A DNA stretch of 61,449 bases, filler included, from Hausera hauseri (taxonomy: Eukaryota), in NCBI GenBank assembly GCA_046269625.1. It is 11 parts of 11 records of this genome, joined end to end, with 100 filler letters (N's around TTAATTAATTAA, not from the genome) between each part and the next. Parts side by side here need not be neighbours in the genome. Positions count along the whole stretch, not along the records: positions 1 to 7,197 come from JBJURY010031558.1; 10 more parts are not named here. One strand, given 5' to 3'. How positions within the stretch are numbered: the stretch's first letter is position 1; each line of letters begins with the position of its first letter. The notes under the pieces were generated by a model, which made no database searches, was not told the DNA's origin, and worked only from the letters and a program-made list of their open reading frames with translations. Below are positions 1-47,466 of this stretch, piece by piece. The position numbers and the translations under genes are program-made.

Positions 1-35
1 ACAATCAACAATTTGTGACACTACCCATTCTTTCC
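1..35 (-). promoter_or_regulatory. Polypurine tract (21-35) and first 20 nt of the 3' LTR (TGTCACA...)
   Basis: Minus strand reads gtcgtGGAAAGAATGGGTAG|TGTCACAAATTG, about 60 nt after the last ORF stop. Confidence 0.7.
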
Positions 36-92
36 ACGACTTTATATAGTAATTTGCCAGTTTATTTACACTTCATTTCTTCGGACTAATTA

Positions 93-650
93 TCAATTAT
101 TAATCAATTTACGACCTTTTTTATTTACGACACTCTCGGATGTGCCCATTGCGTCAATAGGGGTGCCGCGTAATCTGTCCATTCGTCCGCGTAAGTCCGC
201 TTCCGAATCTGTTTCGTTAGATGGTGACTGCGAGTCATTAAGGTAGGATGTAGTGGCCTGTTCGGGCAATATCTCCACTATTTTCTTATTCTCTCCATTC
301 GAGTAGTGTTTTAGCCTTGTAGCTTCAGCTCTGCATACTGGGCAGGTCGTTTTACCATTTTTCAGGGTCCACGTTTCTAAGCAGTATCTGCAGTATTTAT
401 TACTGCAGTCCTTGTTATCTAGGACCACGAAACCTTGATAGAGATCAGCATTACAAACGGGGCATTCTTCTTTTTTAGCTGCGTCGATGTCCTCAAGGTT
501 TTCATCCACTTTTATTATTTCAAATACCAGTCCTTTCTTATCTTGATATAAGTATCCGTACAATCTCTTTTGATTTGGGTCTATTGAGCTTTTCTTTGGG
601 TCATCGGATACTGCGACTAAGGTCCATTCGACGATTTCTTTTTTGTCCAA
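93..650 (-). CDS. RING-finger (C3HC4-like) domain, probable C-terminus of the retroelement accessory protein
   Basis: CPVC...CSNKYCRYC...W...CPVCR at about 333-464. The His ligand position is Asn (AAT, one base from CAT). Confidence 0.75.
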   Translation of the reverse strand: MDKKEIVEWTLVAVSDDPKKSSIDPNQKRLYGYLYQDKKGLVFEIIKVDENLEDIDAAKKEECPVCNADLYQGFVVLDNKDCSNKYCRYCLETWTLKNGKTTCPVCRAEATRLKHYSNGENKKIVEILPEQATTSYLNDSQSPSNETDSEADLRGRMDRLRGTPIDAMGTSESVVNKKGRKLINN

Positions 651-1098
651 ATTGGGTACTCCAGTCTTCTTGTACTGTCCTTTAGTTGAATCCTAACTTG
701 GGTATCCACGGGAATTGTTAATCTGTTAGTTCCACTCTTTCATTGAAATACTGGGCTAGGTATCTGCCGATAGTGTGGTCTTCTCTGGCATATCCGTTTC
801 CACTCACTGTCCGCCTTGGAACGGTAGATGCGTAAAATATAGCCTCTTTGATCTTTCCTTTGCTATAGTATTCGGCCATGACGAGGATTTGTTTATATTC
901 TTTAACTTGGCCAAATTCTGTGACAATAATTGGGGTATGTTTTTCCCAGTTCTTCCGAAGAACGTTAACTTCCGTTTTAAAAGGTTTCGGCTTAGTAATT
1001 TCTAGTTGGGTTTCTCTATCTTCTTTCCATTTTTCCTGATTTGCTACTCCCTTCTGATCTTTTATGGACTTCTCCGGGATTAAGTTATCTGTCGTTAG
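651..1098 (-). pseudogene. Frameshifted middle part of the accessory gene, linking the 487-aa ORF to the RING ORF
   Basis: Manual translation gives ...KQILVMAEYYSKGKIKEAIFY... and LTIPVDTQVRI..., matching MLVSTEYYSKKIIKEAMFF and IVVPVDKQIRV of 19082..19429. Confidence 0.7.
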
Positions 1099-2519
1099 GC
1101 CCTTGCTGGTCTTGCTTCTTTTTTGTTGATATAGTCCAGAAAAGAGGTCTTTGTTTTTTGCCTCTTTGGTTTCTCAAAATTATCAGCTCTTTTTGTTACT
1201 TCTCCTTGAGCTTTACTGGTTGATGGTTTCTGTGGATTGGTTGGGACTTCCGTTGGGTTGTTATAGACTGTTATTCCGAATTTGTTATGTTCATGGGTTT
1301 CGATTTGTCGGTAGCTAGGGTATTCACTAAACCCTTTTCGGAATTTTTGTATCAGTGCCTTGGGGTTATTGTCAGACATCGTATTCTGTATGGGACTTCT
1401 GGGTTTCCATTCGTAATCCAATCGTAATGAGTTATAGATATCGTTTATAAATTTGGTCCTTTGGCTGGCTGTCATTAGCTTAGGGAATTTGAATCGATCG
1501 CCATTCATGGCTTCTAGCATCATCTTAAATTGCGATTCGCGGGATGCTGACGGAAGCAGACAGCCTCTTTTTCGCATCAATGTACTTTCCACTTGGCTTA
1601 CTACTGCTGGGTTTTGACTCAATTCGCGAATTCCGGCTATGTATTCTTGTCTGATTCCTAGTCGCTCCAATGCTTCGTGCACTCGGAATTCGGTAATGAC
1701 GTATCCATATGAGCAATGGCTTATATCTTCTTGGATCTCCAAAAAATCTTTTCCTTTTTTGAGCTGGGGCTTCATGATTCCAGTAACGTCGGGAAAAGTA
1801 TCCTTTATCCTAGCACGAGGTGCGATTATTTTGTTTATGATTTCCTCTCCATTAGTATTTCTGATGGATACTTCGATCAGAAAGTACCATCCGTCATCCT
1901 TTTCTCCATAGTTTACGGCCAATATCCGAGTGTTTCGGCCATCTGGGACTAATCTGTAAGATTCCCCATTTTGCTCTATTTCGTCTTCAGATGGTTTCTG
2001 TACATATAATAACGGTGGTAGCGGCTTCATTACCTCGGTTCGCCACGTCATCTCTATCATAATCTTGGTCGGAAGGTCTGCGATCCTAAATTCCAGGGCA
2101 TAATTTATGAGGCTATAGCAACATAGCTCATAAGTACTAAACTTCCATTGCTGCCCTTTTTGCGTACTCCAGAATTGTCCTACGATCTTGTACTGAATTT
2201 TTTCATCAGCGACATGTATGTACAATTGCTGATGTGTCGGCTCGTATGGAATCAGATCCCTCAAGAGGTATGCTCGTGAATCCTTGGGATTTCTCATGGA
2301 ATATAATCGGACCAGTCGATTCTCTTCTAAACCCCATTTTAGTCCGTTCGGTATTTTACTCTCTTGTTTCAATTCTACATAATTCTGGCTTTTCAAATTT
2401 TCTTCAATTTGTCGGTATAGGTTTTTGGATAACGGCTTGAGGGCAGTGACGTGCTGCTGCAAGAATTTATCGATATCAAAATTGGAACTGACTGATGAAT
2501 TCTTCGCCTTCTCGGTCAT
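1095..2519 (-). CDS. Uncharacterised retroelement accessory protein, N-terminal ~475 aa
   Basis: Long open ORF, alignable along its length with 17490..19118 (INYALEFRIADLP/INYELEFRVAALP; SYRLVPDGRN/SYRLVQDGQN; LMTASQRTK/LLMASQRSK). Confidence 0.75.
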   Translation of the reverse strand: MTEKAKNSSVSSNFDIDKFLQQHVTALKPLSKNLYRQIEENLKSQNYVELKQESKIPNGLKWGLEENRLVRLYSMRNPKDSRAYLLRDLIPYEPTHQQLYIHVADEKIQYKIVGQFWSTQKGQQWKFSTYELCCYSLINYALEFRIADLPTKIMIEMTWRTEVMKPLPPLLYVQKPSEDEIEQNGESYRLVPDGRNTRILAVNYGEKDDGWYFLIEVSIRNTNGEEIINKIIAPRARIKDTFPDVTGIMKPQLKKGKDFLEIQEDISHCSYGYVITEFRVHEALERLGIRQEYIAGIRELSQNPAVVSQVESTLMRKRGCLLPSASRESQFKMMLEAMNGDRFKFPKLMTASQRTKFINDIYNSLRLDYEWKPRSPIQNTMSDNNPKALIQKFRKGFSEYPSYRQIETHEHNKFGITVYNNPTEVPTNPQKPSTSKAQGEVTKRADNFEKPKRQKTKTSFLDYINKKEARPARA

Positions 2520-2602
2520 ACTTACTCGACTGAAATAAAAATAAAGAAAATGAAACAAAACATTTTCTCTGTCTGATGATAGGATAACCCAATCTGTAGT
2601 TG

Positions 2603-4117
2603 TCAGGTTATGCTATCATAAGGTCCGTCTCGGTGCCCTATTACCCGTTTATCTCCCTCTCGATTTTTACAGTGTTTATTACAATTTTTGGAAACTAGAA
2701 AAATCATCGCTGTTGTTATGACAAGAACGAAAATTGACAAACTAAGTATAGCTATTATCGGTAAATTACTTGGCTCAGTAGAACTTTCCGTGGTAAATAC
2801 ATTTTGAGTGCTGATATCTTTATACGGCATTACTTCAAATTTATTGCCAAGCGTTCGTACTGTAAAAGTTTTGGGGTTCTTACCTTTCGCGGTAATTCTG
2901 ACTATATACTCATGTTGTGGCCGTAATGACCTGCATACGGCCCCCAGACTATTCTTTTTCAGGATCACAACTTGGTTGGTGTGCACGGTGCGACACTCAA
3001 TTTTGACGTCTCGATTTAACGTTTATGCAGCGTAAAATAAAATTCTATCACTTTTTGCTAAAATCTTAACCGGTATGTTTTTCGGCATTTCGCTCGAAGT
3101 TACAATCGTAGTAGTTCGAGTTGTACTCGGAGTCGTGGACGGTTTTCCTATAGTGGTTGGGAGCGGAAGCTTCCATATTCCATCCTTTGGACGATATCCT
3201 CTTAAATAGATACTTGGTTCTCCGGGATATATATCGTACAGATCGAGTTGCAACCAATAGTCTTTTCCTAATAGCAGTACAAAACACACAATAGGACGTC
3301 GTTTGGCCAAAGAATAGTATCCTGGTTTAGGAATTGAAGTGTTCAGTGGCGTAAATTGGACAGAGATTTCCTTGTCTTCTGGTAGTCCGCTTTTGGTCTC
3401 AATTCGAATGCACTGGTTCTTTACGTCCTTACGAATTCCAATAATGTTGTAGTCTAAGAGCCTTTTAACCGGATCGATGCTTCGAATTATTTCGTCCGTC
3501 TTAGCTTGATTTACGTCTTTCTGTTGGAGCATCCTTATTGAGAGTTCCATAGTTATGTAGGCCTGAGCCCCGAATTTATAAGAATAAAACATTTGAAAAC
3601 TGTATCCGTAAGTTTGTCCAAAATCCAAACTACAATATATATGAACTCCGTACGAAAAATCACACATTCTCATCGTGTCCTTGGTCTCAAATATTATTTG
3701 AAATTTTACGTAGCTCCGAATAGGTTCGCTTGATTCAAACCATGCACATGGCTTTCTCCAATCCATATCGCGTACTCTAAGTGACTGTAAGTTTTGGATA
3801 TCCTTTCGCTTTTCGCTTTGAGCAATCGATTTCGCAGTTGGTATATACGAAGCGATTAATGATAAGGCCAGGAATATTTTCACATAAGATATTGGTCTGG
3901 TCACTATCGACGATGTTTTCTTTTCTTTATTGACTTTATTTGATCGCAAATTATAGCGTTTATCCGGTCTTATTTCCGTTTTCACTACTCTCTGAATCGA
4001 TAAAATCTCTTCCTTGCCGTTTTTATTTATATAGACTGTGGTCGGCGTAACCTTAGTGACTTCATAAGGTTTTCTACCGGTTCTAGTAAGTTTAAGAGAT
4101 GTGCTCTTTTTCGTCAC
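2603..4117 (-). CDS. Integrase C-terminal tail fused to an env-position type-I membrane protein (signal-like segment, three FN3-like repeats, Thr-rich linker, TM), with one in-frame stop at 3023-3025
   Basis: ORFs 3023..4117 and 2603..2986 share a frame. Hydrophobic IFLALSLIASYIPTAKS; repeats CSLDFGQTY, CFVLLLGKDY, CRSLRPQHEY; TM IIAILSLSIFVLVITTAMIFLV. Confidence 0.65.
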
Positions 4118-4965
4118 TGGGAAGTGTACGTAAACTCAGTTTCCGGGTTCTAGGTCATGTGGTTTAGCCTTCTTATCATACTGTTTCTTAAATTGTTCCT
4201 GGTATTCTTTAGATAACTCTTTGGCTATTTCCTAACACCTGTGCAATCTTGATTGTACTACTTCGACAAAATTCTGATCTAAATCTTCCGTTCTAGTTGT
4301 ATATGGAATCAATCCCAAATCAGTAGGCAGTACAGCTTCTCTACCGTACATCATAAAAATGGACTGAATCTTGTCGCAGGATGTGGAGTAGTATTAATGG
4401 CAAATTGTGTGCCTTCTAAGAACTCGTCCCAATATTTCTGATCCTTCGCGACTACTGTCGATAGAATCCGTATAACGGTCGCGTTCATTCTCTCGACCAT
4501 TTCATTACATTGGGGGTGGTAAGCTGTAGTAGTTAATCTTTCGATCTCAAAAATCTTGGTAATTTTCTCGAACAGTTCACTCGTGAAGTTTCTTCCTCGG
4601 TCCGTCAGTATTTGTTCGGGTGGCCCGTATCTGCAGATGATCTTCCGGACTACGGCTTCTGTTATGGTCTCGGCCTTTTGGTCTAATAATGCTATAAGTT
4701 CGACGAAATGGGTCAATCGATCTACACACATCAGAATGTATTTGTTATTTTTGTGCGTTGTAGGCAAGGGTTCTACAATATCCATAGACATTGCTTGCAT
4801 TGGTCTATCGGGCACATCGATAGGCTTGAGCTCGGCGACGTAATTCTTTACTTTTCTTTGCTTGGTGGCACATACTTCGTACGCATTTACCCAATTTTTC
4901 ACGTCGATATAGATACTTGGCCAATAGCATTTTTTTAAATCCTTTTTAATATCTTTTTCCACCAC
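4118..4965 (-). pseudogene. Gypsy integrase (zinc-binding remnant and DDE core)
   Basis: YWPSIYIDV; MDIVEPLP; ILTDRGRNFTS; TTAYHPQCNEMVERMN. Confidence 0.93.
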
Positions 4966-6047
4966 AAATGTCCAGCCAAATAAGAATCATGTTCGGCCAT
5001 GAGTACTTCCGTTCGTAATCCTTTCGGTATGACAACTAGTTTCTGTCCCTTTCGTTCGTAATATAACACATTCTCGCGGTTCAAATCTCCAGCGACGCAG
5101 TATTTGTGACCATATCGTCGTAAGTGTTTCCGTAACTGATGACCTTTTGGTGTTACGTTGGTCTCTATGAACTCGATAATTTGTTGTAAAACCCGATATT
5201 TTCTTTGCTCAACAGCAATTTTTAATGCCTTATCTAGTGTGAGAATCTGTTGTTTCTCTACTAAGTCTGCAAGGTGAGCTTTTCTCATTACTGTAACTGC
5301 GCTTGTTTTCGTTTTAAGTCTCGATAATGCATCAACGTCAACATGTTTGCTTCTGGGCTTGTATTGGAACTCGATATTATATAGCGATATTTCCTCAATC
5401 CATCTGTTGAGCCTACAAGTTGGGTTATTCGCTTTACCTTTCAAAGTCGTAACTGCTTTATGATCCGTAACGATTATCATCTTTTGTCCATAGACATATA
5501 CATTGAAATTCCGCAGTGCTTCTTTTACCGCTAATGTTTCTAGTTCCGTAACAGAATAGTTCTTTTCTGCTTTCTTCAAAGAACGTCCCCCGTATGCAGT
5601 CGGGTGTTCCAACTCTTCGTCTTCTCGTTTTTTGGCCAGTTCATATCCTATACCTTCCTTACTGGCGTCTGTTTTGATTATGAACGGCAGGTTGAAATCG
5701 GGATATCTTAAAACAGGTTCGCTAGTTAGAATTTTCTTCATTTCATCAAAGGCCATTAGTTCAACATCGGTCCATTTCCATTTAATCCCTTTCTTTAATA
5801 AACGATACAAGGGTGCATTTATCTTTGCGTTTTCTGGCACGTAGGTGGCGTAATATCCACATAATTCTAGCCAATGCCTCAATTCTTTTTGGTTTTTGGG
5901 CTCCATGCAATCCGATATTTTACTTAACAGTGATTTATCCGGTTTTGATCCTCCTTCCCCAACTATATGTCCGAGGTACGACACAGCATTTTGAGCCCAT
6001 TTACACTTTTTGGGATTCAGCTTTAATCCAGCTTGCTCTAATCTCAT
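4935..6047 (-). pseudogene. Gypsy RT thumb/connection and RNase H
   Basis: LKLNPKKC...YLGHIV; FIIKTDASKEGIG; NYSVTELETLAV; VTDHKAV; DALSR. Confidence 0.93.
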
Positions 6048-6089
6048 GAGCGTACCTTCAATATCATTTATGTGGTCCTCTTTCGTTTT

Positions 6090-7197
6090 TCATGCAATCA
6101 TGACGTCGTCCAAATAGGCGAACGCGTGCTCTAGTCCCATTTGCATTTTGTTCATAATCCGGGTGAAAATGGCTGGCCCGGTAGTTATCCCAAATGGCAT
6201 AACATTAAATTCGTATATACCGTCGTGTGTTTTAAAGGCTGTCTTATAGCGATCTTCCTCTTCTATCTCTACTTGCCAATATCCAGATTGCAAATCGAGC
6301 GTGGTAAACCATTTAGCTCCCGAAAGTCTGTCTAAGGCTTCCTTTACTGATGGTAACGGAAAAGAGTCCTTCATCATAAGTGTATTTAATGCTCTATAGT
6401 CGATGCAAAATCGGTGTTTACTGGTACCTTTCTTCTTAACCATAAGTATAGGCGAGTACCAAGATTGGTAACTTGGTCTAATTATGTCGGCCCTTAACAT
6501 TCGTTCAACTTCCCTAGTTATTTCTGGCCTTAGCGAGTGTGGAGGAGGATACCATTTCGGCATCTTTTGATCCTCTAAGTCTATTTCATCATTAGATCCT
6601 GGCTTTTTCTTAACCTGAATCGTGAGCCTTAAAGTTTTGGCTCGGCCAATATCCTCTTCATCTCTCGCGATAATTGAGCTATAAAGACAAAGTAGTTCGT
6701 AGAATCGGCAATATGACTCTGGTGAAAATTTGGTCTCAACGTGGGGTGGAAATTCGGCACACTTGTATAGTTTCTCTTCGATGGTAATCGATGACACTCT
6801 ATACGTGTGTCCTAGAGTAGTATTGGCGTACAGTTTAATCGGAGTTGGTGCGTTATTGGCTATTCTGATTGGCACACGGCCCGTTGATACTCTTGTTAAA
6901 ACATTGCTGATCACTAGGTTTGGATCGAGCGATTCCTTTGGCTCAAAATATATTGGCTGATCGTCAACCTGACGTATCTGAGCATATATTAGGATTTCTG
7001 TTCTAAGTGGTATGGTTTCATCCACTGGAATCCATAATTCTCCAAATTTTTTGTCTTTAGTGGTTTTAACTCCTTTTATTGGGCCAAGTTCTATAAATTT
7101 GCCTGCATTGAAATCGATTGCTATATTAGGTAGTTGCCTCAATAGATCACACCCTAACACTACGTCATCCGTTAGTTGCTCCATTACTGAGAATTCG
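6090..7197 (-). pseudogene. Gypsy protease C-terminus, spacer and reverse transcriptase
   Basis: VVLGCDLL; RFCIDYRALN; LDLQSGYWQV; MPFGITTGPA; YLDD. Confidence 0.95.
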
Positions 7198-13009: not shown

Positions 13010-16000
13010 TTATTCCAAACGCCAATGTCCGTACGCCAAGCTCTTATTTCGCCCCACCCACTTACGCTTATCATCAATGCATGAAAAAGCGGCTTTTGTG
13101 TTGGTCACCGTATCTTGTGTTGAATCGACCGGATGATCGTTTGAGATAACAGCTCTTGATTGTCTTCCTTCATAGACACGGCGATAATCACCGTGATTTA
13201 TTTCCGTCTGGGCCAACTGAATTCCTTTGGCACGCATTTTAGGTCCATTGAGTTAAAAGACTAACATTTTGCCGTAGAAATACCCATTCCCGATACTGAA
13301 CCCGACCTTCTCTTTCATCCTTGAAGCAGCCGATTTTGTTTGTGATGACATTGCTATACAATGGATGATTCTGTGGGTAATTGGACGTGTCCAGTAATCC
13401 GTCTGCCTTCATTTGCTGCAGTAGTTGTTTGCGATTGACCTTTTCCAGTTTCAAGGAAAAACTATCTGTGTAACGGGCAATAATATTGATCCTGCTGTCG
13501 CCGTCGAACATTTGCCGGTAACGTGCCAAATCGCGATACTGCAGCTCATACATCCGCAACTTGCTCAGGTCCAATATCACTTGTCCGATGTAACTTCACT
13601 GTGTAAAAGCACGGCAACCATTCCATCGGCAATTTGCATTGACTGCCGAAACTGCGCCTTACTCGTGTACGTGACAAACTGCTTTTCGCTATTGTATAGG
13701 CGTATATTGAGCCGCTTTTTCATATTCTCCACTGCTTTTCCATACAGGGAATTGTTTTTCAGCTTGTAGTAGTCCTTTTCGAACTTTTCATCCAAGCTGC
13801 GGCTCGTTTCTCCGAATTTCCATCTATGTACGCCTTGAATATGGGAGCTTGAGCAAATCGGATTGCGCGATGTCGTGTGACGCGTACACCCTACTGCATG
13901 TAAAATTGCAACAGACGTCTATGAACTATGTAATTTTGCTTGGGTTCATGCGTCATAAGCAGCTTCTTCACCTTCGATCACGGTGGACATTGGCTAATTG
14001 GTGCGACCGGCAGTTCATCCAAAAAGTCATGCAGTTCACCTGGTACAACGTGTATGCTCTCGATACATTTTTCAGTATTGTGTCCAGGTCCCGTTTGTCG
14101 ACTACTCATTCGAATGAACCGAACGGCAAGGGTTGTGAAAGTGTCAAACCGTACAGGTTATCAATGTTGATATGCAACAGTGATGTGGTATCATCACTGG
14201 TTGCGTGATGGTTGTTGACAAATGTCATGCCGCCATGAATACCAATATCAAACATTCGGTGGATTTCCGAGTATTGCAACAGCTCGATATCCCGATTCAG
14301 TGACATCAGAGCTGATGCCCAAATCTTTCGCTCGAAACGCCTGAAGCACATCGGCTAACAGGAACACGTCCAGGTTAAGATAGTGGAGCATGTAATCCAA
14401 CATATTTCTACAGCCCAGTTCTGTCCAAGATTCTTGTGCTCTCCGATATTCATCTTCTGTGATGCCTGTCCATTGCAGCGGTAATTCTTCTGCTGTCCGG
14501 AGTCGCTCATATGATGTTGCAAAGTCATATGGAAATATGCCGTTGCTTTGTGCAATATGTGTGGGGAACTGCGTTGAGGTTATCGGTATATTCGGCAAGG
14601 CATTTACCAGATTCGCCAATGTTTCATTGAGAAATTTCAATGAATCAAGGAAGCATACCTGGAACCGGTTTATGCGTGTTGACAGGGACAGGTACTTATC
14701 CATTGTTGTTGGGATTATGGACAGTTCCCAGTGCTGAAATCCGTTGATGGCCCATTTCAGTATATGGTGACAATCATAACCTCGGAAATTATGAAAGATC
14801 ACCGTAGGAATGGCTGCACACGCATTGTTAAATAGCTTGCGTTGCATGCTGCCCCCAGGTATCGACCGTTGAAATGATCATTATCCGGTACGAGCCGTTC
14901 CTGTGCATCAAAAGGCAATATTTTGTGGCAGAGGTAACATTCATTGGTGACAGTGAAAAGCAGTGGTTTATATTCGTCTGTCCATATCAAGGGTTTAGTG
15001 CTATTGTTACTGTACCACGGCGCGATTTCCGTTTCCACAATTGTTTCAAACTGTTGCACGAAATCGCGTATACAGTTACAGCCATGAAAAACGTAATATT
15101 GCAGTTGTCCGGCGGCTTTGATTGGAATAACCAACATACCGACGGCGATTGGAATGTGCTTTTGGTCGTATACGTTGTGCCGCGGTAGGATTGCCTCCAT
15201 ATTGGCATATACCACACATACCGGAGTGTCTGTTTCCGACCAGTCACTGAATTTCAGCTCCTTTTTGACTGGCATGACGTACATTTTTGTCCCTAATGAA
15301 TTTTGTCTGCACACCGCCACATGTTTTTCCCATGTCGTTTTTGACCTGAAACCATACGCTTTTTGATTAATTGGTGGTGATCCATGTTCAGCAGTCTGTC
15401 CAAATTGGTTACTGCCACGTAGTGAAATTTATCTGCTTTTTCCAACAGCAACAAATTTACCTAGCGTCTATTCGGCTTTTTGTATCTCTTCGTATGCTGG
15501 TATTTCTACGATTGTGTTGTACCGGAACACGTTGATTGCCAGTGTCGGATTACGCCGTTCAAAAGCCGGAATGGTAGTCCAATTCTGAGAAATACTTACT
15601 GTACTGCTTTGGACAATTTGCATGATGTCTGGACACTTGTTCATATTTCAATATGGCCAGAATGCTGTAAATAAAGCAGTATTTGTCGTTAGTATTTTGT
15701 ACATTCTATACCGCCAGAGACTGCTTCAAGGATTCAGGTGTCGGTATGAGTGAACGTCCGGACAGGTAAATCATGTCACTCGTCTTGGTTAGAATAAAGC
15801 CGAGAGTGACAATCTTTACAATTCGCCAACCAGTGCCATTTTCGGTGTAGTTGGCGATTTATTCGTCAAGCTTCTCGCCTACATCGGCAATAAAATCCTC
15901 AAAGTATAGTACGACTCGATGTGACATGTACCATTGTTTCCTGTCACCTGCAGATTTTCAAATTCTGCAAGAGCATAATATTGCACTTTGCAGTGGTGTT

Positions 16001-17061: not shown

Positions 17062-17489
17062 TCACAAATATATTATTTTGCTACGTTTGTTTTCGTGAAT
17101 CAATATAATTTCTTTCACGTGTCTTTTTTGTTGTTACATTTCAGTATAAATACTTGCGTTTCCTTACGGTATGACATTACGGCATGTTCCATTTAACAGA
17201 ACTCATTCGTTTATATCACTCGTTCGACGGTCTCCGGAGTCACCTATGCAATCTTGATCGACCTTTACATGATTCACGATACCGTTCTCCCTATGAGATA
17301 CTCCGGCGTGCTGAGGAGAATTGGAGGGTACGAGAACCTTATNNNNNNNNNNNNNNNNNNNNNNNNNNNNNNNNNNNNNNNNNNNNTTAATTAATTAANN
17401 NNNNNNNNNNNNNNNNNNNNNNNNNNNNNNNNNNNNNNNNNNCAATACTTTGTTTTAGGATTGACCCTTATTTTGTATTTATTTTTAGA

Positions 17490-19400
17490 ATGGTAAGTAC
17501 GAACAGCCGACCTAGGATCGACACCTTTCTACAGGAATACGGAACCGTCCTCATTCCAAAATCCAAGGGAATTTATAGAAGAATCAACGACGCCCTGCAA
17601 ACAAAGGCATATCTGGAATATAAGAAAGTAACAGAAATACCCAACGACTTAAAGGGTACGACAGAGGATAATCGTATCGTCATGTTATATGCTATGAAAG
17701 ACAATCACCAAGCCGAATCTTACGATCTGAAGGAATTAATTCATAATCAAATAAACCGAGTGGAGAACCTATTTATACACCTCGCAGATGGAGAAATTTA
17801 TTACCGAATAAAAAACCAACAATGGAACGGAAACGAAGGGCGCCAATATAGATTCAGTACATTCAAAATAAATGAACAAGGTCTAGAAACCATCAATTAC
17901 GAACTAGAGTTTAGAGTAGCAGCGTTACCTGTCAAGTTGATGTTTGAAGTGACTTATAGAGAGAATTGCAACTTAGGTTTGCCAATTCTAGAATTTGAAC
18001 AGACCCCAACAGAGGAAGAGAAAGATGAACATAAACAATCGTACAGACTAGTTCAAGATGGACAAAATGTGAGAATAATAGCGATAAACTGCGGTAGAGG
18101 AGATGATGGATATGGAATACCCATCGAGATATCTGTCAGGGAGAGAAACGGAGTGGAGATATATTCGACGATAATAAACCCTCGAAAACTAGTACAGGAA
18201 TCATATGGAGAAGTAACAGGATTAAGAAAGGACCAGTTAATAAGTGGAACAGATATCTGTCAAGTCCGCTCAGAATTAGAACACTGTTTGTATGGTTGTA
18301 TGATAGCCGGTTATTATGCCCAACATGAGATGAAGCTATTAGGGATATCCGATGCAAATATTGCAGGACTTAGGGAAATAGCTTCTCATCCAATCGTCCA
18401 GGAACGGATGGAAAGAATTATACAAGGGAGAAACCGACCAACCGCGCCCGAAGCTTTCCTCAAGCTAACTATAGATGCTATGAGTGACCACCCGAGTAAA
18501 ATACCCAGACTTTTGATGGCCAGCCAACGGTCCAAATATTTGCAAGAAATATATGTTAAACTAAAATGGGAACATGAATGGACCCCAAGAAATCCCATAT
18601 ATAATTTACGCAACTCAATAGCCCCGGAACAACTAGACGGAAGATGTAGAAAGGGCATTAAGCCTTATTCCCCGATTCGAACTATCCAGATGATGGACGA
18701 ACACAATATCCAGATTACAGTACCAAAAAAGAAGATTGAGAACGAGAGGAGACTCCAAATGACTAAAGGAAAGGAGATAGTGCAAGAAACATCAAGGTGC
18801 CTACAAGAACAGAGAAAAGAAACAGGACCAGAAGTGATAAATAAAAAGATGAGATTAGAAAAGGAACTCCAACCAAGAAAAAAATTATCTATATACAATT
18901 ACCTATTTAAAAGACGGAAGACGGATGAAGAACAAGAACTAGACGATCAACCAAGCACTTCTCAAAGTACAGAACCGTCAAGGAAAGGAATTAGGAACCC
19001 CCTAATAACAGAAATCAGTGCCCTAATAAGCAAAAGAAGCAAAGACGATGTACATTTTAAAAAAACCAAGAATTTCCTAGAATGCTGGTGTCCACCGAAT
19101 ACTACAGCAAAAAGATAATAAAGGAAGCAATGTTTTTCGTAAAACTTGCCCCAGCCAGAGAAGTATTCGCAAATACATATGTGTGGGAAAACACTAAAAT
19201 CGGAACTTACCTTACATCGATCTTTCGTTCGAAAAGAACTGGAAAAATAGTAGTTCCTGTGGACAAACAGATACGAGTGCTGCTGAAAAAACAATATCAA
19301 AGGTATAAGATAGAAGGAACTATCCCTGACTTAGACAAGGATGTGATGACAGATTGGACTTTAATCCAAGTGGATTGCGACCCACGTAAAAGCTCCATTA
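17490..19400 (+). CDS. Diverged second copy of the Gypsy accessory gene (542-aa ORF plus frameshifted continuation from 19082), truncated before the RING
   Basis: Colinear similarity to 2519->~590. Ends LDKDVMTDWTLIQVDCDPRKSSIN versus LDKKEIVEWTLVAVSDDPKKSSID. Confidence 0.78.
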
Positions 19401-22400
19401 ACCTATGTATTAATGTAATTCCATTTTGATTCTTCACTTTTCTACTGAATGAACCATATTCTATTCGCAACAAACGGTTTGTAGTACTTTTAATATTGTT
19501 CAATCCAAAAGGGGACATTCTTGCTCTCACTCCAGTATGTTATTCTTATATTTGTTACATGCAGAATTTTCGCTACCTTCATGCACAGTTTCACTCCTAT
19601 GCACGCGGCCATTAACTCCAATCTAGGGATTCATATAGGTTTTATTGGGGCAACTTTTGATATTGTTGCGATTATATTCGTTCGTATTTTGTTCTTACTT
19701 ATACATATGAGATAAGCTACCGCCCCATATGCTATACTGGATGCATCACAGAATATGTGAATTTCCTTATCATCAGTCCCGTTCATTCCCATTCATCTTT
19801 CTATTTTTATTTCGTTTATTTCAGCTAATTGATCCAATCATGTCATCGTACGTTTTTCAACCCTTCGGGAATCTCATGATCCCAGCCAAATCCGTTTAAC
19901 CACATTTCTTGTAGCAGGCATTTGCCCACTATTGTGATAGTGCTCAATAGACCCAAGGGGCCGAATATTTTTGCTAAAGAACTTAAAATATTTCTTTTGG
20001 TTAATCTATTATCGTGGTCTCCCCCGCCGTCGAAGGTTAATCGATCTTCTTTTACATTTCATTTAAGTCCTAGAGTTTTTGAGACACAGCTGACTTCACT
20101 TTTGAAGGTGTATTCTCTTGTCTTCTCGCCTTCTGGGATTTTATAACATAACTGCTCTGAATTTGATAGCCATTTATGGGTCTTCATTTTTGATGTGCCC
20201 CAAACTTCTTTTAATTGGTGGTATAACTCAACGGTTTCACATTCTGTTTCAACGGAGTCTATACAATGGTGCATATACGTGGATTGTTTAATCGTTTCAA
20301 CCGCTCATGGATATGGGTTTTCAAATGTATCTGCGTTAACGTGGCTCACGAGCTGTGCCAGGAATGGTAAAGCATTCAATCCAAACATTACTCTTGTGAA
20401 TTGATATGCCTCGACATTACCATCCTTTCTCCATAGGAATGGTACGAATTTTCTGTCACCTGGAGAGATCCTAATCTGTAAGAACATTTTAACAATATCG
20501 CAGATCAATACAATTTTATATCTTCTCATACGTATTAAAATATCTACTAGATCTTGCTGTAGCTTCGGCCCTGGATATGATAAGTCATTTAAGCTTTTTC
20601 CTTTCACTTTTGCGGCTTCGTCGAAGTCTACTCTAACTTTAGTGGTAGATCTATCCGGTTTTAAAACAGGGATATGCGGCAGTATCCAATAATTCATCTC
20701 GATTTCCATCTTCTCTACTAATTCCACATATCCTTTTTTGATATGATCTTCGATGACTTGCTTTGGATATTGGTATCTCTTCCATTTCGTCTCTTCACGG
20801 CAGATAAACCTCATACCTTCCATCTTCAGTCTTCTTTATTTTATCTTTTGTAATCTGAAGAATTTCTTTATCCAATTTCGACCAAGTCTCTTTTACTTCA
20901 ACCGAATTTCATTTTCCCATAATCTTTTCATATTATCGTTCATTTCATCTACTCTGGTCCAATATGTTCGCACTAAGTTATTTCGCATTAAATTACCTTT
21001 CCGTTTATTCAAAGTTCCGACACGTCCAACCAAGGGGTGTCAATCTAGATAATAGTATTCCTGGCTTCCCGGAGACTTCTTTTGTGGATTTATGAAGGTG
21101 TATATAAATGGCACCTATAATTCCATCTGCATGCTCATCTTCTCCCGCTCCTACGAATTTAATATCTCGTAGGTGTGTCCATTGTCTCTTTTCTATCGTC
21201 CAACTGACGTAATTCATGTTCCCTGTTGGCTTTCTCATGGATAGTGCATTGAATCGTTCACAAATGCTATTATCCAAACCCTCCAAGATCTTGTGAACTC
21301 TGATCATATTTTGTTTTTGTTGCATACCTCCAACTACTGCCACTGTAACGTTTTCTTCTTCCCCACTAAGTTTTAATTGTCGTGCAATGTCTTCTTCAAG
21401 AAAACTATCAGTACTAGCGTCATACAACAGCATATTTACTTTAATTTTTTTGATTCCGTTAAGTAAGTATACCGATACGGTCGTCAAGGCTATTCCATCT
21501 AATACTTCAGATTTTTCTTCCTCCATCTTTCTCTTGTAAATTTGTCTTTCTGAATAATCACATTCATTTGTTTGGCAAGAAATGTCGTTCAATCGTGATT
21601 TTGTTCTGTCGGTATCTACGGAGGTTTTGGGGTTTTTGTCTTTATCTAAATTTCCATCAAGAATTTTTGAATAATTGACTTCTCGTTTTAAAGTTTTTGG
21701 AGAATCTCCATGCTTGAACCAACAATTCCCACCGTATCTGCAATTTCCTATTTGAAAGTATGGACAAGGTTTTTGATTTATATTTTTATAACTACTCTGA
21801 TCTCTCTTTTCATGTTGATACGTACATTAGTCTTTGAATTGGAATTTACCAGTTAGGAAATATATGCAAGGTCTCCGTTGGATCTCTTTATTTTTCCAAC
21901 AATTATTACTTCTTTCTATTCTTTTTCCTTTATTACGGAACCCAATTTTGTCTGTTGACTTATTCCTTTCCTTCTTTTTATCGGTATAAAAGGAATTTTT
22001 CACTAATCTTTCGGAATGTATATTTTTGTTTGGCATTAAAACATTTATTCCATGAACTCCTGCAGCAAGACGTTTTAACTCTGCTTCTTTTTCTACCCAC
22101 GCTTTCAAGTCTTGTACGTTTCGTTTTTATCCTTATCTTCGCGATATCGCTCCCATGTTAAGACCATAATTTCGGGTAACTTTTGGATTAGATTTTGTTA
22201 CAATAGACCGCCTTCCAACTCTATTTCAGGGTCTAAATGTTTCAATCTTACTATGGCTGAGTCCAATAACGTGGCGAAGGAGTCTAACTCTTTAATGTTA
22301 TGTACGCCTATTTTTTGGAACTCCATAATCTCTGACATGAGAGAGGCGTAATTTCTCTGGTTCCCTGCATAATATCTTTCCAATTTTTCAACAACTGCTT

Positions 22401-22470
22401 TGTAGGAATCTTCTGAGAGATTATAGTTTTGAACTAAGCGTTTTGCTTCTCCATACAAACAATTTTCTAG
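19400..22470 (-). mobile_element. Degraded BEL/Pao retrotransposon (Gag, protease, RT, RNase H)
   Basis: GEAKRLVQNYNLSEDSYKAVVEKLERYY (BEL Gag); STTKVRVDFD...SLND...GPKLQQDL; DIVKMFLQI; HIFCDASSIAYGAVAYL. Confidence 0.92.
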
Positions 22471-23099
22471 NNNNNNNNNNNNNNNNNNNNNNNNNNNNNN
22501 NNNNNNNNNNNNNNTTAATTAATTAANNNNNNNNNNNNNNNNNNNNNNNNNNNNNNNNNNNNNNNNNNNNTTGACAACACGATTTCGATTTTCTTTGATG
22601 CGTAAGTCATTTCGATTGTCTTTCAATAAGGATTATTTGAGAAGTACTAAAATAAAATGAAACGAAATTTTGTATTTATGCCATCAGATAGTGTCGCGGT
22701 TTGTCCCAAATATATCTGTATCGGTTACTGATTTTTAAAGTGATTAAAAAAGGTAAAATGTTCAAAAATTTTAACCCAACTTTGTTGGTGCATCGAAAAA
22801 TTAAATTCTGGATTTCTTTGCACCAACAATGTATTTTTGTATTTTGATAATTTGGACCCTTTGAAATACTTTGGAAGTAATGAGGGATGCTTTTCTTTGT
22901 TGCTTCTCATTAAATTTTCAAAAGTAAAAGATGATTGAACCAAATAAAATTTATTTGTAAACGTTCAAAAAGTAATAACTTTCAATTCGTAGATATCGCG
23001 TGTTAATAACAATATAATTTTCAACACAAAACTATTGAATATTAAGTCCAGCCCTTGTCTCCGAACCCCCCACAGCTTCTTCATGTCACAAAAATTATA

Positions 23100-23720: not shown

Positions 23721-26597
23721 TAATACTTAAATGGCCTTGGCCTGATGTGACATTTGCGGGATAAAAAAATAATCACGAATTCACCAAATCCGGGATAAGT
23801 ACTAATTTCGGATTCACCCAATCCGGTATACTGTATTATCACAGATTCATCCAATCGGCGGATAAAAAATAAGTACCGATTTATCAATTCGTGAAATTCA
23901 CTTTTGTTTAAACGCATAAATTCAAAGGGGGTGTATAGTTTTGTGCCAGAACTCTCATTTTTCTACTACTCATGGATACTGTGTCGATTGCATCAATGAT
24001 TATTTGATTATTGATTGCCATTGTCCATTTAGATGTATTAGCAATGACAAATTGATTTATTTCAACTCAATTCATTCAGATAAAATGTGTAGAGATGACA
24101 ACTTTTATCGAAATAATGCCCAGCAATTTCTGCACTATTTTATTGATTCTGAGTCTGTTTGTATTGATCAAACATTGAAAAAGATTCAGAAATTTACTCA
24201 TGCATTACGAATGGGAAATGACTTTTCTAGTGAAGATGAAGAAGTGGATGTCTTTGGAGCAATACCTCATATTTATGTGATGAAAATTTCATGATTATAT
24301 GGACAATTTCTGGAAATATCGATTTTTGAATATATGACGTAATTTACATGATTCATGTCGAGAATTTTGCACATATCATAAATTAGACAATTCTTACAAC
24401 GGAAGTATTCGAATTGTGGCCCATGAATTTTTGTAAAATCAGGCAGTAACATGTTACTCATCATGTTGATTATTTATCACAAATCAAAAATAGCTGCAAA
24501 TTAAAATACGGAAGTTACAAATTTGTAACGGATATTCAATCCTCGCCAATCATAAACATTAAATATTTTGACTAATATAAATTGTATATAGATTTTATTA
24601 TATAAGCACACAGTTTTTTAAATATTAAAATTTTTCATTTCGAAATATGGCCTATTCTGTTGTCCACATTCTAAACTTCTTGTTCAGTAGTGACGATACC
24701 TCTCTCCTATGTATGAATTTTTATATCCATGAAATATACACGGTGATAAGAAAAATTTCGGAAAGTCTGCACGAAAATTCAATTTGTGTATTTGTAAAAT
24801 TTCCATATAGTACTTGAAAACCACTGATTCCGTCAATATTTTCCTCCTCGTCTGTCCGTTAATTTAGGCAGTCAGTCATTTCTGAAAGTGAATCCATCAT
24901 GCCAGTTGCATTGTGTACATTCGTGAATATTTTCATAAACACCCATTGGCCACTATTGGAATATTTCAACAGTCCAAAATGAAATATATATTTTACAAAC
25001 AACTAATCCGATTGTGACATTTAATATTGAATTTAAATTAAATGTGATTAAATTAAATTTTCAATTATTAAATAATTTAAATGAATTCCAATGGGGTATA
25101 TTTAAAATAGTCATTAAACAATAAAGTAATAAAAAATAAAAATACCAAATGAAATTTGTTTCTGATTCAAACTTATCAAATTGATTCTGAAATATCGATA
25201 TTAAAAATTGCAATTATTGAATTTCATTTAATATTCGATTTTCACATTTATTCATTTCGAATGACATTGTTATTGCAAGGACGAAGTTTCCATGTAAATC
25301 AAGGAGATTAGTCCGGAATATACTGACATTTTGTTGCATATTTTAAACGTCAATTATTGATTTATTGGATTTTACACAACAATTGCAAATTGTATTTCAT
25401 TTCATCTATATGGTATAAAATGCAGAAACTGCAATGCAAAACAAATTCGTATTTGAACTGTCTATTTCGACATTCATTCGTTGTCTAATGAATGTTTATC
25501 TGAATATGGTATATGATCAGTATTATCGATTATTAACTGAAATGCCATTTGTTATATACTTTACTTATAAATCAATAATTAATCGACATTAATTATTTAT
25601 TAAAAATTGATTTCCTTCAATCAATTTCCACATTACATATTAATAAATTTTGATATTACAAATTACGTAAAATGTACATTTTACAAATTTTTATTAAATA
25701 AAAATTTCTAATTGATTTTGTTTCAAATTTATTAATTTTTCTCAATAAATAAATTTTAATTGATAACAATAATTACCGTATTTGATACGGCCCGTTACGT
25801 GATTCAAAATTATGACAAAAATCTTACGGAAAAATATAAACATTTAAATAATACACATTATTAAATAATCAATTTTTATTTTTAAATATATTTTTAATTA
25901 CAATCAATTATTAAATATCGATTAAATTAATCTATATTTTTTGCGAAAATTTAACAAATTGTAATTTCTTTATTTGGAATTGATTTTTTGTGTGACATTG
26001 ATTATTTGATTATTGATTTTGATATACTACTTTAAATTGTAAAATTTGATTAAATGTTTAACAAATTTAAAATACAACTCATTTAATTAATAATGATACC
26101 AGAGATGAAAAAGAAATACAAATTTTACTTAATTTTGAATGTATACAGTAAAATATGATATGCACACATACACGTCATTTTAGAAATGGTATCGAATCAC
26201 CATTCATATTCCACAACGCAAATACATCACAAAAATATCAACACTACAATGATAGTTCCTTTGACTTTATTTAAATAAATTTGATTATTGATTTTAATTG
26301 ACAATTTAAATTTAAATATTTATAAAAAGTTAAAGTCACAATTGAAAATTTTTCTATTTACAGAATCCTTATTTGGATGAGTAAGATGTGAAATAAATGG
26401 GACAAAGAAAAATTTTTACAAAGTAATAAAATCAGTAAACGATTGCGATTTATTATATAATCGATTTCACAGTCCGATTTAAAATTTAATTTTTATTTAC
26501 CAAAAATATTTAATTAAAAAATTAAATTAATAATTTTATTTAATTAAAAATTTGTTTCAAAAACACAAAATAAGAAATCATATTTTAACAAAAATCA

Positions 26598-27563
26598 ATG
26601 AGTGAAAGTAATCAACAAACAAGAAAGAGAAGCAGTCGAGAAGTATCTGAGTTCGTAAAGAATCACGCATTGAATCTGGCACGTCAAGGAAAGACAATGA
26701 ATGAAATTTGTATTGAAGTCGGTCATTCAAGACCAACAGTTAAATATTGGGTTAAAAAGGCCCAATTGAGAGTAAATCCAGCACCAAGGAGAGGTCGAAT
26801 TCCAAATCAATTAAAACAGAATTGCACTGAATCAAAATTACCGAGAAAGAAAAGTAGCAGAGAAATTCCAGAATTCGTAAAGAATCACGCATTGGATTTG
26901 GTTGTCAAAGGAAATCGAGTCAGTGACATTTCGAGGGAAATTCGACGTTCGGCACCAACAATTAGATACTGGATAAAACGAGCTAAATTGACAGTAGCTA
27001 AAGTAAAACGTCAAGCAATCGAATTGCAAAAGACTCAAAGAAAACGAAGCAGTAGAGAAATTGCTGAGGAAATCAAAATTCGAGCATTGAATCTCTACCG
27101 CAGTGGGAAAACATTGAAACAAATTTCAAGAGACATTAACCAATCAGTACAGACTATAAGATATTGGATCATCAAGGCAAAAATTCTGCGAACTCGACAG
27201 TCAAAGGTAAATTCGACAAATAATGAAACTAATAACGAAATCGAATATTCAAATAAAATTCAGACAATCGATGAAGGACAGTTGATAAAATTGCATCTCA
27301 CAGACAAAAGTACCCTCACAGTGAAACAAGAACCAATCATTGAAAATCCACAATCAAAAATCGATATTGACAATCAACCAATCAATGCAGTTGATGAACA
27401 TGCGATGCATTTACAACAGACTCGACAAAAATGCAAAAGGGCCATGGAAATATTGGACACATTCATTACTTCATCACAGAAGACATTTTCTGAGATGCAG
27501 AATCTTCTCGATGAACTTGATGCTGAAGTGGAGGTGCATAGGATAAGAAAAACAATTTTTTGA
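26598..27563 (+). CDS. Intact single-exon protein with three tandem helix-turn-helix repeats and a C-terminal helical region
   Basis: Three copies of RK(R/K)SSRE...AL.L...G.....I...I..S..T(V/I).YW..(K/R)A. AATAAA about 45 nt after the stop. Confidence 0.8.
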   Translation: MSESNQQTRKRSSREVSEFVKNHALNLARQGKTMNEICIEVGHSRPTVKYWVKKAQLRVNPAPRRGRIPNQLKQNCTESKLPRKKSSREIPEFVKNHALDLVVKGNRVSDISREIRRSAPTIRYWIKRAKLTVAKVKRQAIELQKTQRKRSSREIAEEIKIRALNLYRSGKTLKQISRDINQSVQTIRYWIIKAKILRTRQSKVNSTNNETNNEIEYSNKIQTIDEGQLIKLHLTDKSTLTVKQEPIIENPQSKIDIDNQPINAVDEHAMHLQQTRQKCKRAMEILDTFITSSQKTFSEMQNLLDELDAEVEVHRIRKTIF

Positions 27564-33445: not shown

Positions 33446-36400
33446 ATAGTAAATTTAAATGAGTTAAGGGACTCGTTGGATCTAATTCTGCTTTGACATA
33501 TTGGTATAAAAAGGTATTAAAAATGGTATCAAAAGCATATTATATAATTGTTCTAATCTCTTTACGTCATCATCCAGTTCCTTTATATTCTTCTGATATT
33601 TCTCCAAATCTTCAGTTCTTTCTAAAGAGTTTGTTGTTACATCAATAATTATGTAGTAATATATTAATGTATCTCGACCTATTATGCAAGGAATAGTGGC
33701 GTTATTCACTATAAAGTATTGAATTTTTGTGCGTTTACCCTTCAATTTCATTAATGTTGTAGTTACACCTATTACTTTTAATTGATTTCCGTTTATTAAC
33801 TTATTATTTATTTCGCTACCTTCAATTAGTTTTAATTTCAGTGTTTTCAAAGCAGCCTTATTTAGGTCATTTTTGCTGCACTCATATCAACTATAGCGTC
33901 TATTTGGATTTTATTAATGGTTATTATCGTAATTTATGTATTATTATTTGACCCGACGTCGACAAATGCGACTATTGTACCACTAATATCCGATTACATT
34001 CGACTTCTTAGTGGGTATTTGCAAGGTACTGGCTGTTACAGTTTATGTTCCTTGGCCAATGGTCTACAACGCTGTACACTCATCCATGAAATTTTATAGG
34101 CATTAGTTAAATTTTGTAATTCCACACTTGATTCTGTTACTCGGAGTATTTAATACGGTTCTTTATATGGCGATTTCAATTTTGGACTCTCGCCTGGTTT
34201 ACAGGTTTCATTTAATATATTAACCAAATCTCCAATTTGATACACATGAGGTTTTGCCCTTTTGTCATATTGATCCTTGTAATTTTCTTGATGATATTTA
34301 ATTTTTAATCCAGCTCTGATCCATGCTTTTTGTAATCTTTCTTGTAAAATTGTCGCGTAATCTGGTCCTTCCATCATTTGTGATTGCGGTGGCCTATATT
34401 CTAAATCAATTGGCATAATATCTCGTCTACCGTAAAGTAAAAAGTATGATGATTTTCCAGTTGTCGTATGAGGACTTTGTCGGTAGGCATATAAACAAGG
34501 TTTTATATACAGATCCCAATTAGCCGGGTGATCATATGCATAAATAGATATCATAATTGAAAATTGTTTGTTAAAGGCTTTTATTGCGCCATTGGCTTGG
34601 GGATGAAAAGGCGAAGTAAATTTGTGGTTGACTTCTAATATCGCTAGCACTTTTCCGTAAGTTCACTACAAAAATTACTTTCTCTATCGGATGTCATTGT
34701 CATTGGTACTCCATATTCGAATATTACGTCGTCAACCAATCTTCTAGCTATAACATCTGTGGTTAGATTTATCATTGGCATTGCTATTGGAAATTTTGAG
34801 TGGTAGTCTACTGCTGTTCGTACACATGTGTTTCCTCTTGTAGTGGTTGGTAAAGGTCCAACTACGTCAACACCTATACAAACAAATGGTAAATCTAAAA
34901 CTGGTACTGGTTTTAATGGTGTTTTCTTTGCTTAAAAGTTTCCTATTCTTTTTGAACAAACCTGTCCGTTGGTACACCAATCTTTTACATCCTCTGTAAT
35001 CTTTGGCCAATAATATTTTTGCTTAAGTCAGCCTAATGTGGCTTTATAACTTCCATGTCCTCCAAGTTGTCCGTCATGATAGTGCAGTAAAAGTTTTGCG
35101 CGCATGTGTTTTGGTACAACCATAAGTAAATCTTCATACTTTTCATAGTAGATATTTCCCCTTTCCATTTTATATTTATTTTTGATCCCTTCTTTGTTTA
35201 GACTATTACGGATTTTACGAATTTAATCATCCTTCGCCTGTTCCTTAGCTATGGCTTCGTGTGTGATTGGTATTGACAAAAATATGTGCATTTCTTCATT
35301 AATTTCTGCATTATCCACTTCATGTATCATAGTTTGAATTAGATCGATCATCTTATAGTATTTATATAAAATATCTTCTACTAATGGGTCTTTATAGTCA
35401 CTTTGTCTTGTATTTTGTTGATTATCCTTGTTAAATGTTTGAATAATCATACTTATAAGTTGGTCGGTATCTTTGGTGCGTTTCTTTCGTGTTGCTTTAG
35501 GTATGCTTGGATGGATTTTTTGTGAATAATATTCTTTCAGATCCTGCATGTCCTCATAATCAAGATTAGAGTGATCGTTATAGTCCTGGTCGATATCGCT
35601 TTCTTGGAGTCTCGACAAAAAGTCTGCATTGGCGTTTGCTTTTCCTTGTCGATATTTTATTGAAATTTCTAAATCCTGGATTTCTGCAGCCCATTTCATT
35701 AATTTTCGGCTAGTATCTCGTTGTTTCATTAACCATTGAAGAGGTTTTTGATCCGTATATAATATTATTTCTCGTCCCGTAATATAATATCTGAAATATC
35801 GTAGAGCATATACTATGGCATAACATTCTCTTTCAATTGTTGACCATTTACGTTGCGTTTCACTTAGCGTTTTACTGATACACGCTATTATTCCTTCACG
35901 TGGTCTATCGGGAAGTGATTGTCCTAAGACTGCTCCTATCGCATAGCCACTGGCGTCAGTCATGATTATATAAGGGTAATTAGGGTCAGAAAACTGTAGT
36001 ATTGGTGGGGAAGTTAAGACTTGTTTTAAGACTTCGAATGATCTCTGATATGTTTCTTCCCAATTCCATGCTGTTTCTTTCTTTGTTAACTCCACTAGTG
36101 GTTTATCTATACTTGCAAAATTATATACAAACTTTCTATAGTAGTTAGCCATTCTTAACAGTCGTTGTAATTCTTTAAGACATTTGGGCGTTTTTAATTT
36201 CTTAAGTTTCTCTACATTTCTAGGGTCAGGCTGAATTTCTTTACTTGACATTATATGTCCGCGAAAGGTAACAGTATTCTTAGCAAATTCGTACTTTTTC
36301 AATTTGATCTTTAGATGGGCATGTTGTTGTCAAAAACTTGTGAAATATCCTTCAAGTGTTGCTCGAAGTTTTCAGAAAATATTATTACATTATCTACGTA

Positions 36401-40632: not shown

Positions 40633-41045
40633 NNNNNNNNNNNNNNNNNNNNNNNNNNNNNNNNNNNNNNNNNNNNTTAATTAATTAANNNNNNNNNNNN
40701 NNNNNNNNNNNNNNNNNNNNNNNNNNNNNNNNTTGGTACATGTTATTTTATTGCACTTGGTTCGTTCGATTTTCGGTTTCGGGCAAACTATGGGAATTTT
40801 CGATACATTTATGTTTTCGAGGACTTTGATATAATCTGACTTTGATATAATCTGACTTTCATTAAGAACTTATTCGATTTTCACATCATGAAGACTTTGC
40901 TTCGAGAACCGAGACAAATGGCACGTCGTTTAAGTACTCGTTTAATAAACTTGCATTTCTTCTTAGATCGTTTCACGGTCGCTATTGTTTATCTTGAAAA
41001 ATTGGCTCTTCTACCTGAATCCGCGGCACCACAATATTCCTTAAA

Positions 41046-47150: not shown

Positions 47151-47466
47151 ATCTATTACCCCCCGGGGTGGGACAGAACCGCCATTTTCTCCTTACTTAT
47201 ATTTATACGTCGGTGCTGACCATTTCCCACACAAATCCCATCATTATTTACGCCAGTATAAAAAAGTTGTTTATTAAAATTTATTTCTTTCATTATCTAT
47301 TAGCTGCTTCAATTTTATTAAACTTGTTACCGACCTCTTTTGGAAATATCATATTTTCTCTTTGTTTTTCATAATTCCATTCGATTCTTGTCACCTGAAA
47401 ATTTTGAAATAAATCTGGTACTTAACGCAGTCGTTTGTTGGCGATAAATGTTGCTACTATTTCGGC

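Follow-up and report, generated by a model that had tools for sequence, protein, structure and literature searches.

Retroelements must splice part of their RNA and keep part of it whole. The leader exons of the HIV-1 vif and vpr messages are about 50–75 nt long. These messages depend on donors that are bound by U1 but remain unspliced (A1-D2 and A2-D3), as described in the available text of PMC4163160. The element analyzed here resembles this arrangement in that an acceptor would give access to an accessory gene, the donor would be unspliced and the start codon mostly lies behind the donor, but the HIV-1 donor stands a real leader exon away from the acceptor that it enhances, whereas only 4 nt separate the two sites here. 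Similarly close acceptors and donors are known from micro-exons (3–30 nt) and from recursive splice sites, where both are adjacent; steric interference has been reported for exons shorter than about 50 nt (PMC8911335, available text). The spacing observed here falls within the range of micro-exons, but the element presents no long intron and no zero-length gap, and no strong downstream acceptor was found within the contigs. Recursive splice sites were rejected as a class for this motif, with 4 nt between AG and GT in both DNA copies.

Several retrotransposons also carry genes in their 3' part. Cer1 of C. elegans, for example, expresses its 3'-ORF protein through a spliced mRNA whose acceptors are conserved (PMC3315495, PMC10309623, in the portions available). 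As in Cer1, a consensus acceptor precedes the 3' ORF of our element and is kept among relatives, but here an env-like membrane gene stands between pol and the accessory gene. The accessible parts of the Cer1 papers describe no donor 4 nt past the acceptor, and they describe a GTPase-like fold without mention of a RING for the CERV protein, whereas the protein studied here is, comparing by description, exonuclease-like with a RING (PMC3315495, PMC10309623). The bdelloid elements Juno and Vesta share more of the gene content: they are LTR elements with an exonuclease ORF of the DEDD superfamily in the 3' slot, for which a spliced message is expected (PMC5408684, available text). Their ORF3 is RNase D-like (DEDDy), retains its catalytic residues and mostly replaces env, whereas the domain found here is of the RNase T/SDN1 kind without the first acidic motif, stands behind an env-like gene and is continued by a RING end; a word search of the accessible text of that paper returned no mention of a RING (PMC5408684). 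Errantiviruses, which are gypsy-type elements, express env as a subgenomic 3' gene through a well-conserved acceptor (PMC13669377, available text), but the acceptor described here serves a gene located after env, and the env-like protein matches no Pfam family. Finally, RING-like and exonuclease cargo are listed solely in unrelated elements in the part of PMC6431247 that was available. The general plan of a spliced 3' accessory gene, of exonuclease cargo and of silent donors is already known. Full-text searches of open-licence papers brought up no account of the adjacent donor motif, nor of an accessory gene that fuses a dead exonuclease to a RING.

Organization of the element

The window, i.e., the whole stretch of 61,449 nt that we analyzed, consists of eleven contigs of 4–7 kb joined by N-spacers. 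Copy 1 of the element fills the contig at 1–7197 (minus strand) and copy 2 opens the contig at 17443–22470, which begins only about 45 nt before the acceptor AG. The two copies lie on separate contigs joined by spacers and are therefore neither neighbors nor linked.

The pol gene of copy 1 (4351–7197, minus strand) is cut by the contig end and encodes a reverse transcriptase, an RNase H and an integrase in three pieces, with the Pfam families RVT_1, RT_RNaseH and rve in Ty3/gypsy order. By this order of pol, the element is a Ty3/gypsy LTR retrotransposon. The best named solved relative of its reverse transcriptase among 3 hits was the Gag-Pol of Ty3-G (E = 1e-32), a placement by similarity with no tree behind it. 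An env-like ORF of the type I membrane kind (2603–4135, minus strand) continues in frame from an integrase-tail-like stretch; signal-peptide-like and transmembrane-like stretches are visible by eye, and a stop at 3023–3025 interrupts it. The env-like pieces returned no Pfam family and no usable Atlas hit, and an errantiviral identity, which would imply an envelope of the baculovirus F type, was rejected in the absence of any Pfam hit. By eye, we take the last extracellular part of this ORF to resemble a fibronectin III domain. The second-best donor-like site of copy 1 is located inside the same ORF (2878–2883, minus strand). A secreted form of env made through this donor at 2883 was considered but set aside: it would end two codons past the junction, within the last extracellular domain.

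At the other end of copy 1 (1–35, minus strand), the sequence reads as a purine-rich run (35–21) followed by TG (20–19), and positions 35–19 likely represent the polypurine tract and the start of the 3' LTR. The contig ends cut gag and both LTRs, the LTR of copy 1 ending after about 20 nt. Any donor upstream and the greater part of the 3' LTR (a possible location for a partner acceptor) lie beyond the contigs. The element presents, in order, pol, the env-like ORF, 71 nt, the motif described below, three pieces of an accessory ORF and the putative polypurine tract with the start of the LTR.

A strong acceptor-like site followed by a donor motif

Direct reading of the sequence reveals a U-rich tract, an AG, four nucleotides and GTAAGTA in both copies (2531–2519, minus strand; 17487–17499, plus strand, from the AG onward). 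The tract of copy 1 (2532–2562, minus strand) has 23 T out of 30, more than any other stretch of 30 nt on the sense strand (7.2 kb). It is followed on the same strand by the AG (2530–2531, from the sequence and an acceptor scan), by the spacer TCGA without a start codon (2526–2529) and by GTAAGT (2525–2520). The latter belongs to a donor-like U1 site, GTAAGTAT (2518–2525, minus strand), which overlaps the ATG at 2519–2517 and contains a TAA in the phase-1 frame. In copy 2, the tract and acceptor span 17467–17488 (plus strand; AG at 17487–17488), the spacer AATG (17489–17492, plus strand) contains the first in-frame ATG of this copy, and GTAAGT (17493–17498, plus strand) opens the donor-like site GTAAGTAC (17493–17500, plus strand). 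When sense-strand GT sites were ranked against the U1 consensus, these two sites were the top matches among 295 (copy 1) and 70 (copy 2), and the match runs on to +7 (A) in both DNA copies. No other acceptor-like or donor-like site of the element is as strong as these two.

The first-pass annotation had reported this combination of acceptor, 4 nt and GTAAGT with the same spacing and phase in both copies, and it was right on each point: the gap is 4 nt, the junction is in phase 2 and GTA AGT is in frame as Val-Ser, while the neighboring sequences cannot be aligned. The motif was also said to mark the start of both gene copies. It is indeed common to both, but the unlinked copies differ in the position of the ATG, which stands 10 nt downstream of the AG and after the donor in copy 1 (acceptor TTTCAG), and 1 nt downstream of the AG, within the spacer, in copy 2 (acceptor TTTTAG).

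The motif is far beyond chance, real and conserved. In the whole window, the 16-nt pattern TTTYAG-N4-GTAAGT has 2 matches against 0.03 expected and none of 100 shuffles reached 2, a significance that is overstated because the pattern was taken from the two sites themselves. Only 3 sites of the 61-kb window present at least 15 T in the 20 nt before YAG, and two of them are the motif sites. With the loosest cut-off, 2 of the 39 acceptor-like sites of the window have GTAAGT within 0–10 nt, both at +4. RNA folding around both sites gave no structure signal (z of −0.14 and −0.28).

Conservation of the motif in diverged homologues

Searches of protein collections returned two homologues (P0001 and P0002) and the exonuclease P0003, and nothing more. 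A Phe-rich run, one residue and Val-Ser precede the conserved core in frame in P0001 and P0002 also, i.e., in four of four homologues, which is the expected translation of a U-rich tract, AG, N4 and GTAAGT. The simulated chance of this signature is 0.0007–0.005 per sequence; the base-by-base reading comes from the two DNA copies, the codons of P0001 and P0002 being deduced from protein. In P0002, Leu-Ala-Lys stands before Val-Ser, which would suit a 4-nt spacer but equally one of 0 or 5 nt. The homologues bearing the signature are 37–54% identical and the peptide flanking it is not conserved, in a region that is otherwise unalignable. At the level of sequence, these observations give good support to the spliced subgenomic RNA proposed by the first-pass annotation: the strongest acceptor-like site of the element stands 71 nt after the env-like stop, and its signature recurs in all four homologues. 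The AG is thus predicted, with good confidence, to be the splice acceptor of an accessory mRNA, in cis or in trans.

The distance from Val-Ser to the conserved core is 15, 6, 43 and 35 codons in the four homologues, always in frame and without stops (for the two longest spacers, this would occur by chance with probabilities of about 0.06 and 0.11). This suggests that ribosomes enter from an upstream exon in phase 2. The same evidence bears on trans-splicing, in which the AG would be a spliced-leader site resolving a polycistronic or internally started RNA, with the donor as a helper U1 site. The U-rich tract, TTTCAG/TTTTAG and the nearby ATGs would suit a trans-splice site, and the copy-1 and copy-2 contigs show no CpG depletion (CpG ratios of 1.08 and 0.89), as in many invertebrates; the element's host is probably an invertebrate. 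The spliced mRNA of Cer1 bears SL1 (PMC3315495, available text). But the conserved phase and the stop-free spacers argue for translation entering from an upstream exon, and we consider trans-splicing rather unlikely; it concerns the acceptor and would be compatible with a regulatory donor.

A Met is found behind the donor in three of the four homologues, as in the silent-donor messages of HIV-1. In copy 2, it lies before the donor, such that use of the donor would retain a start codon. The position of the ATGs also allows that the TAA within GTAAGT is the conserved feature, with ribosomes entering in phase 1, stopping and restarting at the adjacent ATG. Phase 1 does stop two codons past the junction with an ATG within 5 nt in both copies, and the donor-like site at 2883 would cut the env frame in phase 1, but the G, the GT and the A at +7 are left unexplained and the next Met of P0001 and P0002 is 34–43 codons away. 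Such stop and reinitiation seems extremely unlikely.

The copies are 37% identical in amino acids and 38% identical at third codon positions (204/534), which appear near saturation. Given these values, neutral inheritance of the motif is unlikely. If the acceptor were real and GTAAGT merely reflected Val-Ser coding or shared ancestry, without function, one would expect what is seen in the four proteins, namely Val-Ser in frame, and the DNA was read for two copies only. Val-Ser coding alone, in contrast, would produce GTA AGT codons in both copies with p of about 0.005, the element's ORFs contain 10 further Val-Ser pairs without a single GTAAGT among them, and near-saturated third positions and an unconserved flanking peptide leave little room for shared ancestry. 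We consider a functionless GTAAGT quite unlikely. Selection on the donor motif at the nucleotide level, beyond Val-Ser coding alone, is supported by these comparisons, and the motif is probably functional.

Further copies were sought in larger collections. Protein patterns gave 159 candidates in metagenome contigs and 42 in viral contigs, none of which was confirmed as a further copy. Motif scans yielded 117 and 22 loci (the metagenome scan took in 41 of 64 parts); with an E cut-off of 0.1, none of the 139 showed similarity to the accessory proteins or to the env-like ones, and they are therefore chance matches. Two runs returned 17,678 and 1,675 contig pieces over 1–7190; every one of the 30 bins of copy 1 was covered, suggesting that diverged relatives are numerous. 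Among the 15 joints between pieces listed over this interval (91 more exist), none touches 2525–2530, but these contig runs are of unspecified kind and their joints constitute no test of splicing. Over 2490–2575, 102 and 20 pieces were found, covering 2490–2546 without joints; all of the pieces listed (16 of 122) span the donor, each with 2–9 other letters at unlisted positions. The summed depth of pieces drops from 19,755 to 15 past 2546, a weak hint that the block common to relatives begins at the tract, although contig depth cannot rank the parts of a gene.

The accessory gene and its protein

The accessory ORF of copy 1 is found in three pieces on the minus strand. The first (1095–2519; 474 aa) comprises an N-terminal domain of no known family, an exonuclease-like domain (about 1925–1614) and a basic linker. 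The middle piece (718–1173), in a different frame, matches residues 599–655 of P0002, and the last (93–692) carries a C3HC4 RING (about 467–330) and is 50% identical to residues 679–856 of P0002. Copy 2, delimited from its ORFs and by comparison of the copies, has a first piece at 17490–19118 and a second one in another frame at 19061–19429 (both plus strand), where similarity stops before the RING. P0002 is a single ORF of 870 aa that takes in every piece of the accessory ORF, three from copy 1 and two from copy 2. The frame changes fall at different places in the two copies, for which decay or an assembly error is the best explanation. In P0002, the RING forms the C-terminal end of a single long ORF, and its separate frame in copy 1 is therefore also better accounted for by decay or misassembly than by an exon of its own.

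This organization bears on the idea, put forward in the first-pass annotation, that a micro-exon or re-splicing switch yields a shorter isoform containing the RING, considered here as a RING-only product. A perfect donor and a RING encoded in a separate ORF of copy 1 would be expected under this scenario, but it is hard to reconcile with the continuous ORF of P0002 and with frame changes at differing places. Moreover, none of the 38 AGs conserved between the copies downstream has a tract comparable to that of the acceptor (at best 8–10 pyrimidines out of 14, versus 11–12), and the best conserved AG near the RING (612 in copy 1, 19369 in copy 2) has 7 and 9. The short isoform is unsupported and appears very unlikely.

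The exonuclease-like domain presents family similarity to DEDDh (RNase T-like) exonucleases: SDN1 (E = 0.00096), the PolC exonuclease (E = 0.005) and ISG20L2 (E = 0.017) were among 5 PDB hits, the comparison with P0003 (Pfam RNase_T) gave E = 3.9e-5, and the Atlas scores were 0.88, at lead level. The first catalytic Asp-x-Glu is replaced by Asn-x-Gly/Ala in all four homologues, which predicts a dead nuclease. With this replacement and a match of the RNase T/SDN1 type, membership in the bdelloid DEDDy ORF3 type was rejected. The RING passes the Pfam cut-offs in copy 1 (zf-RING_2, 30.7 bits versus 27.3) and in P0002 (zf-C3HC4, 30.8 versus 21). Structure prediction on the four-sequence alignment was unusable (mean pLDDT of 31.9). 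We regard the protein as a candidate silencing suppressor or RNA-export regulator. In the linker (about 1165–1120, minus strand; 18875–18920, plus strand), we noted by eye a motif of Ser-hydrophobic-x-Asp/Asn-hydrophobic between basic runs, which recurs in copy 1, copy 2 and P0002 amid an otherwise unconserved linker. The basic runs resemble nuclear localization signals, and the motif faintly resembles a PCNA-binding degron.

Possible roles of the donor in splicing

The explanation to which we give most weight, at nearly even probability, is that the acceptor makes the accessory message and that the donor mainly serves as a U1 site that is bound but left unspliced and modulates use of the acceptor. 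The AG would be joined to a donor situated either within env or close to the element's 5' end (beyond the window), and translation would cross the junction in phase 2 from the upstream exon or begin at the nearby ATG. The full-length protein would need the donor to remain unused because the nearest start codon lies behind it in three of the four homologues. Across a gap of 4 nt, U1 and the AG-recognizing factors would crowd each other, and the donor would most likely act as a brake on an over-strong acceptor that spares unspliced genomic and env RNA. By the same mechanism with the opposite sign, the donor would enhance the acceptor, as in HIV. The brake is the preferred sign because a retroelement needs unspliced RNA, the acceptor is strong and exons under about 50 nt are sterically hindered. 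The direction of the effect is a guess, since the silent donors of HIV act across a real leader exon while short exons suffer hindrance. A role of the donor in protection from early polyadenylation received no specific support: the poly(A) hexamers of the accessory ORF (3 and 6) are unmatched between the copies.

The donor might instead be truly spliced, either in different transcripts or once the first splice has been made. Joining it to an acceptor located within the 3' LTR or past it would then remove the accessory ORF from env or genomic-length RNA, making the env and accessory messages mutually exclusive. The donor is perfect, the 4-nt gap makes it hard to use both sites together, and a partner acceptor in the LTR, which is cut at about 20 nt, would be invisible. 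But scanning copy 1 from 2520 to the contig end revealed no acceptor-like site, and known recursive sites have GT directly after AG, in long introns (PMC8911335, available text). This dual use is unlikely, although not negligible.

The nearest plausible partner acceptors for the donor are weak conserved AGs at 2457–2458 in copy 1 (minus strand, in Phe-Leu-Gln codons) and, as its counterpart, at 17533–17534 in copy 2 (plus strand). Splicing to them would turn the 4 nt into a micro-exon with a short in-frame intron behind it, whose retention or removal would affect the N-terminus only. The AG is kept with 8 and 10 pyrimidines out of 14, the introns (69 and 42 nt) are both multiples of 3, and their removal would account for the variable, unalignable spacer. 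However, these introns would contain the Ile-Asp-x-Phe found in all four proteins and the nearest start codon in three of them, the pyrimidines and AG are dictated by codons, and copy 2 shows no branch-like motif. Such a micro-exon is, in our estimate, rather unlikely.

Returning to the silent U1 site, a conserved, perfect donor 4 nt past the strongest acceptor would constitute an unusually compact way of setting the splice balance and a natural test of how U1 behaves when its distance from a 3' splice site is too short. The fusion of a putative dead exonuclease to a RING after an env-like gene, a candidate regulator or anti-silencing factor, is possibly as interesting as the motif. One speculative extension, which we find unlikely, is that the two sites act as a binary switch between env/genomic RNA and the accessory message. 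The encoded protein would bind RNA and recruit ubiquitination against small-RNA silencing or for export of genomic RNA, feeding back on the switch, as a Rev/Vif-like circuit evolved independently outside retroviruses.

Other contents of the window

Copy 2 is cut at about 19430, where it abuts a decayed element in opposite orientation (19430–22518, minus strand) that has a CCCH finger and motifs that we take to be BEL/Pao-like. Decayed Ty3/gypsy fragments of at least two other families were observed at 33482–37292 (minus strand), 41019–44416 (plus strand) and 47413–52279, one of these families having a strongly C-rich sense strand. The segments 35881–36355 and 36778–37253 form a duplication with 81% identity.

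The contig at 29179–33345 has a CpG ratio of 0.37, compared with 0.67–1.11 in the ten other contigs, and the window may therefore mix organisms; this contig probably entered the same assembly from another, vertebrate-like organism. Its minus strand presents several canonical introns, each roughly 100 nt long, as well as a weak UBX hit and, presumably, HECT-ligase-like exons, the latter with no Pfam hit. Elsewhere, we observed a fragment of a type B DNA polymerase, presumably Polinton-like (14248–15428, minus strand), a 324-aa protein with repeated helix-turn-helix domains (26589–27563, plus strand), a piggyBac-type transposase split by a stop (37720–39141, plus strand) and a decayed, intronless ubiquitin-hydrolase fragment (54018–54779, minus strand).
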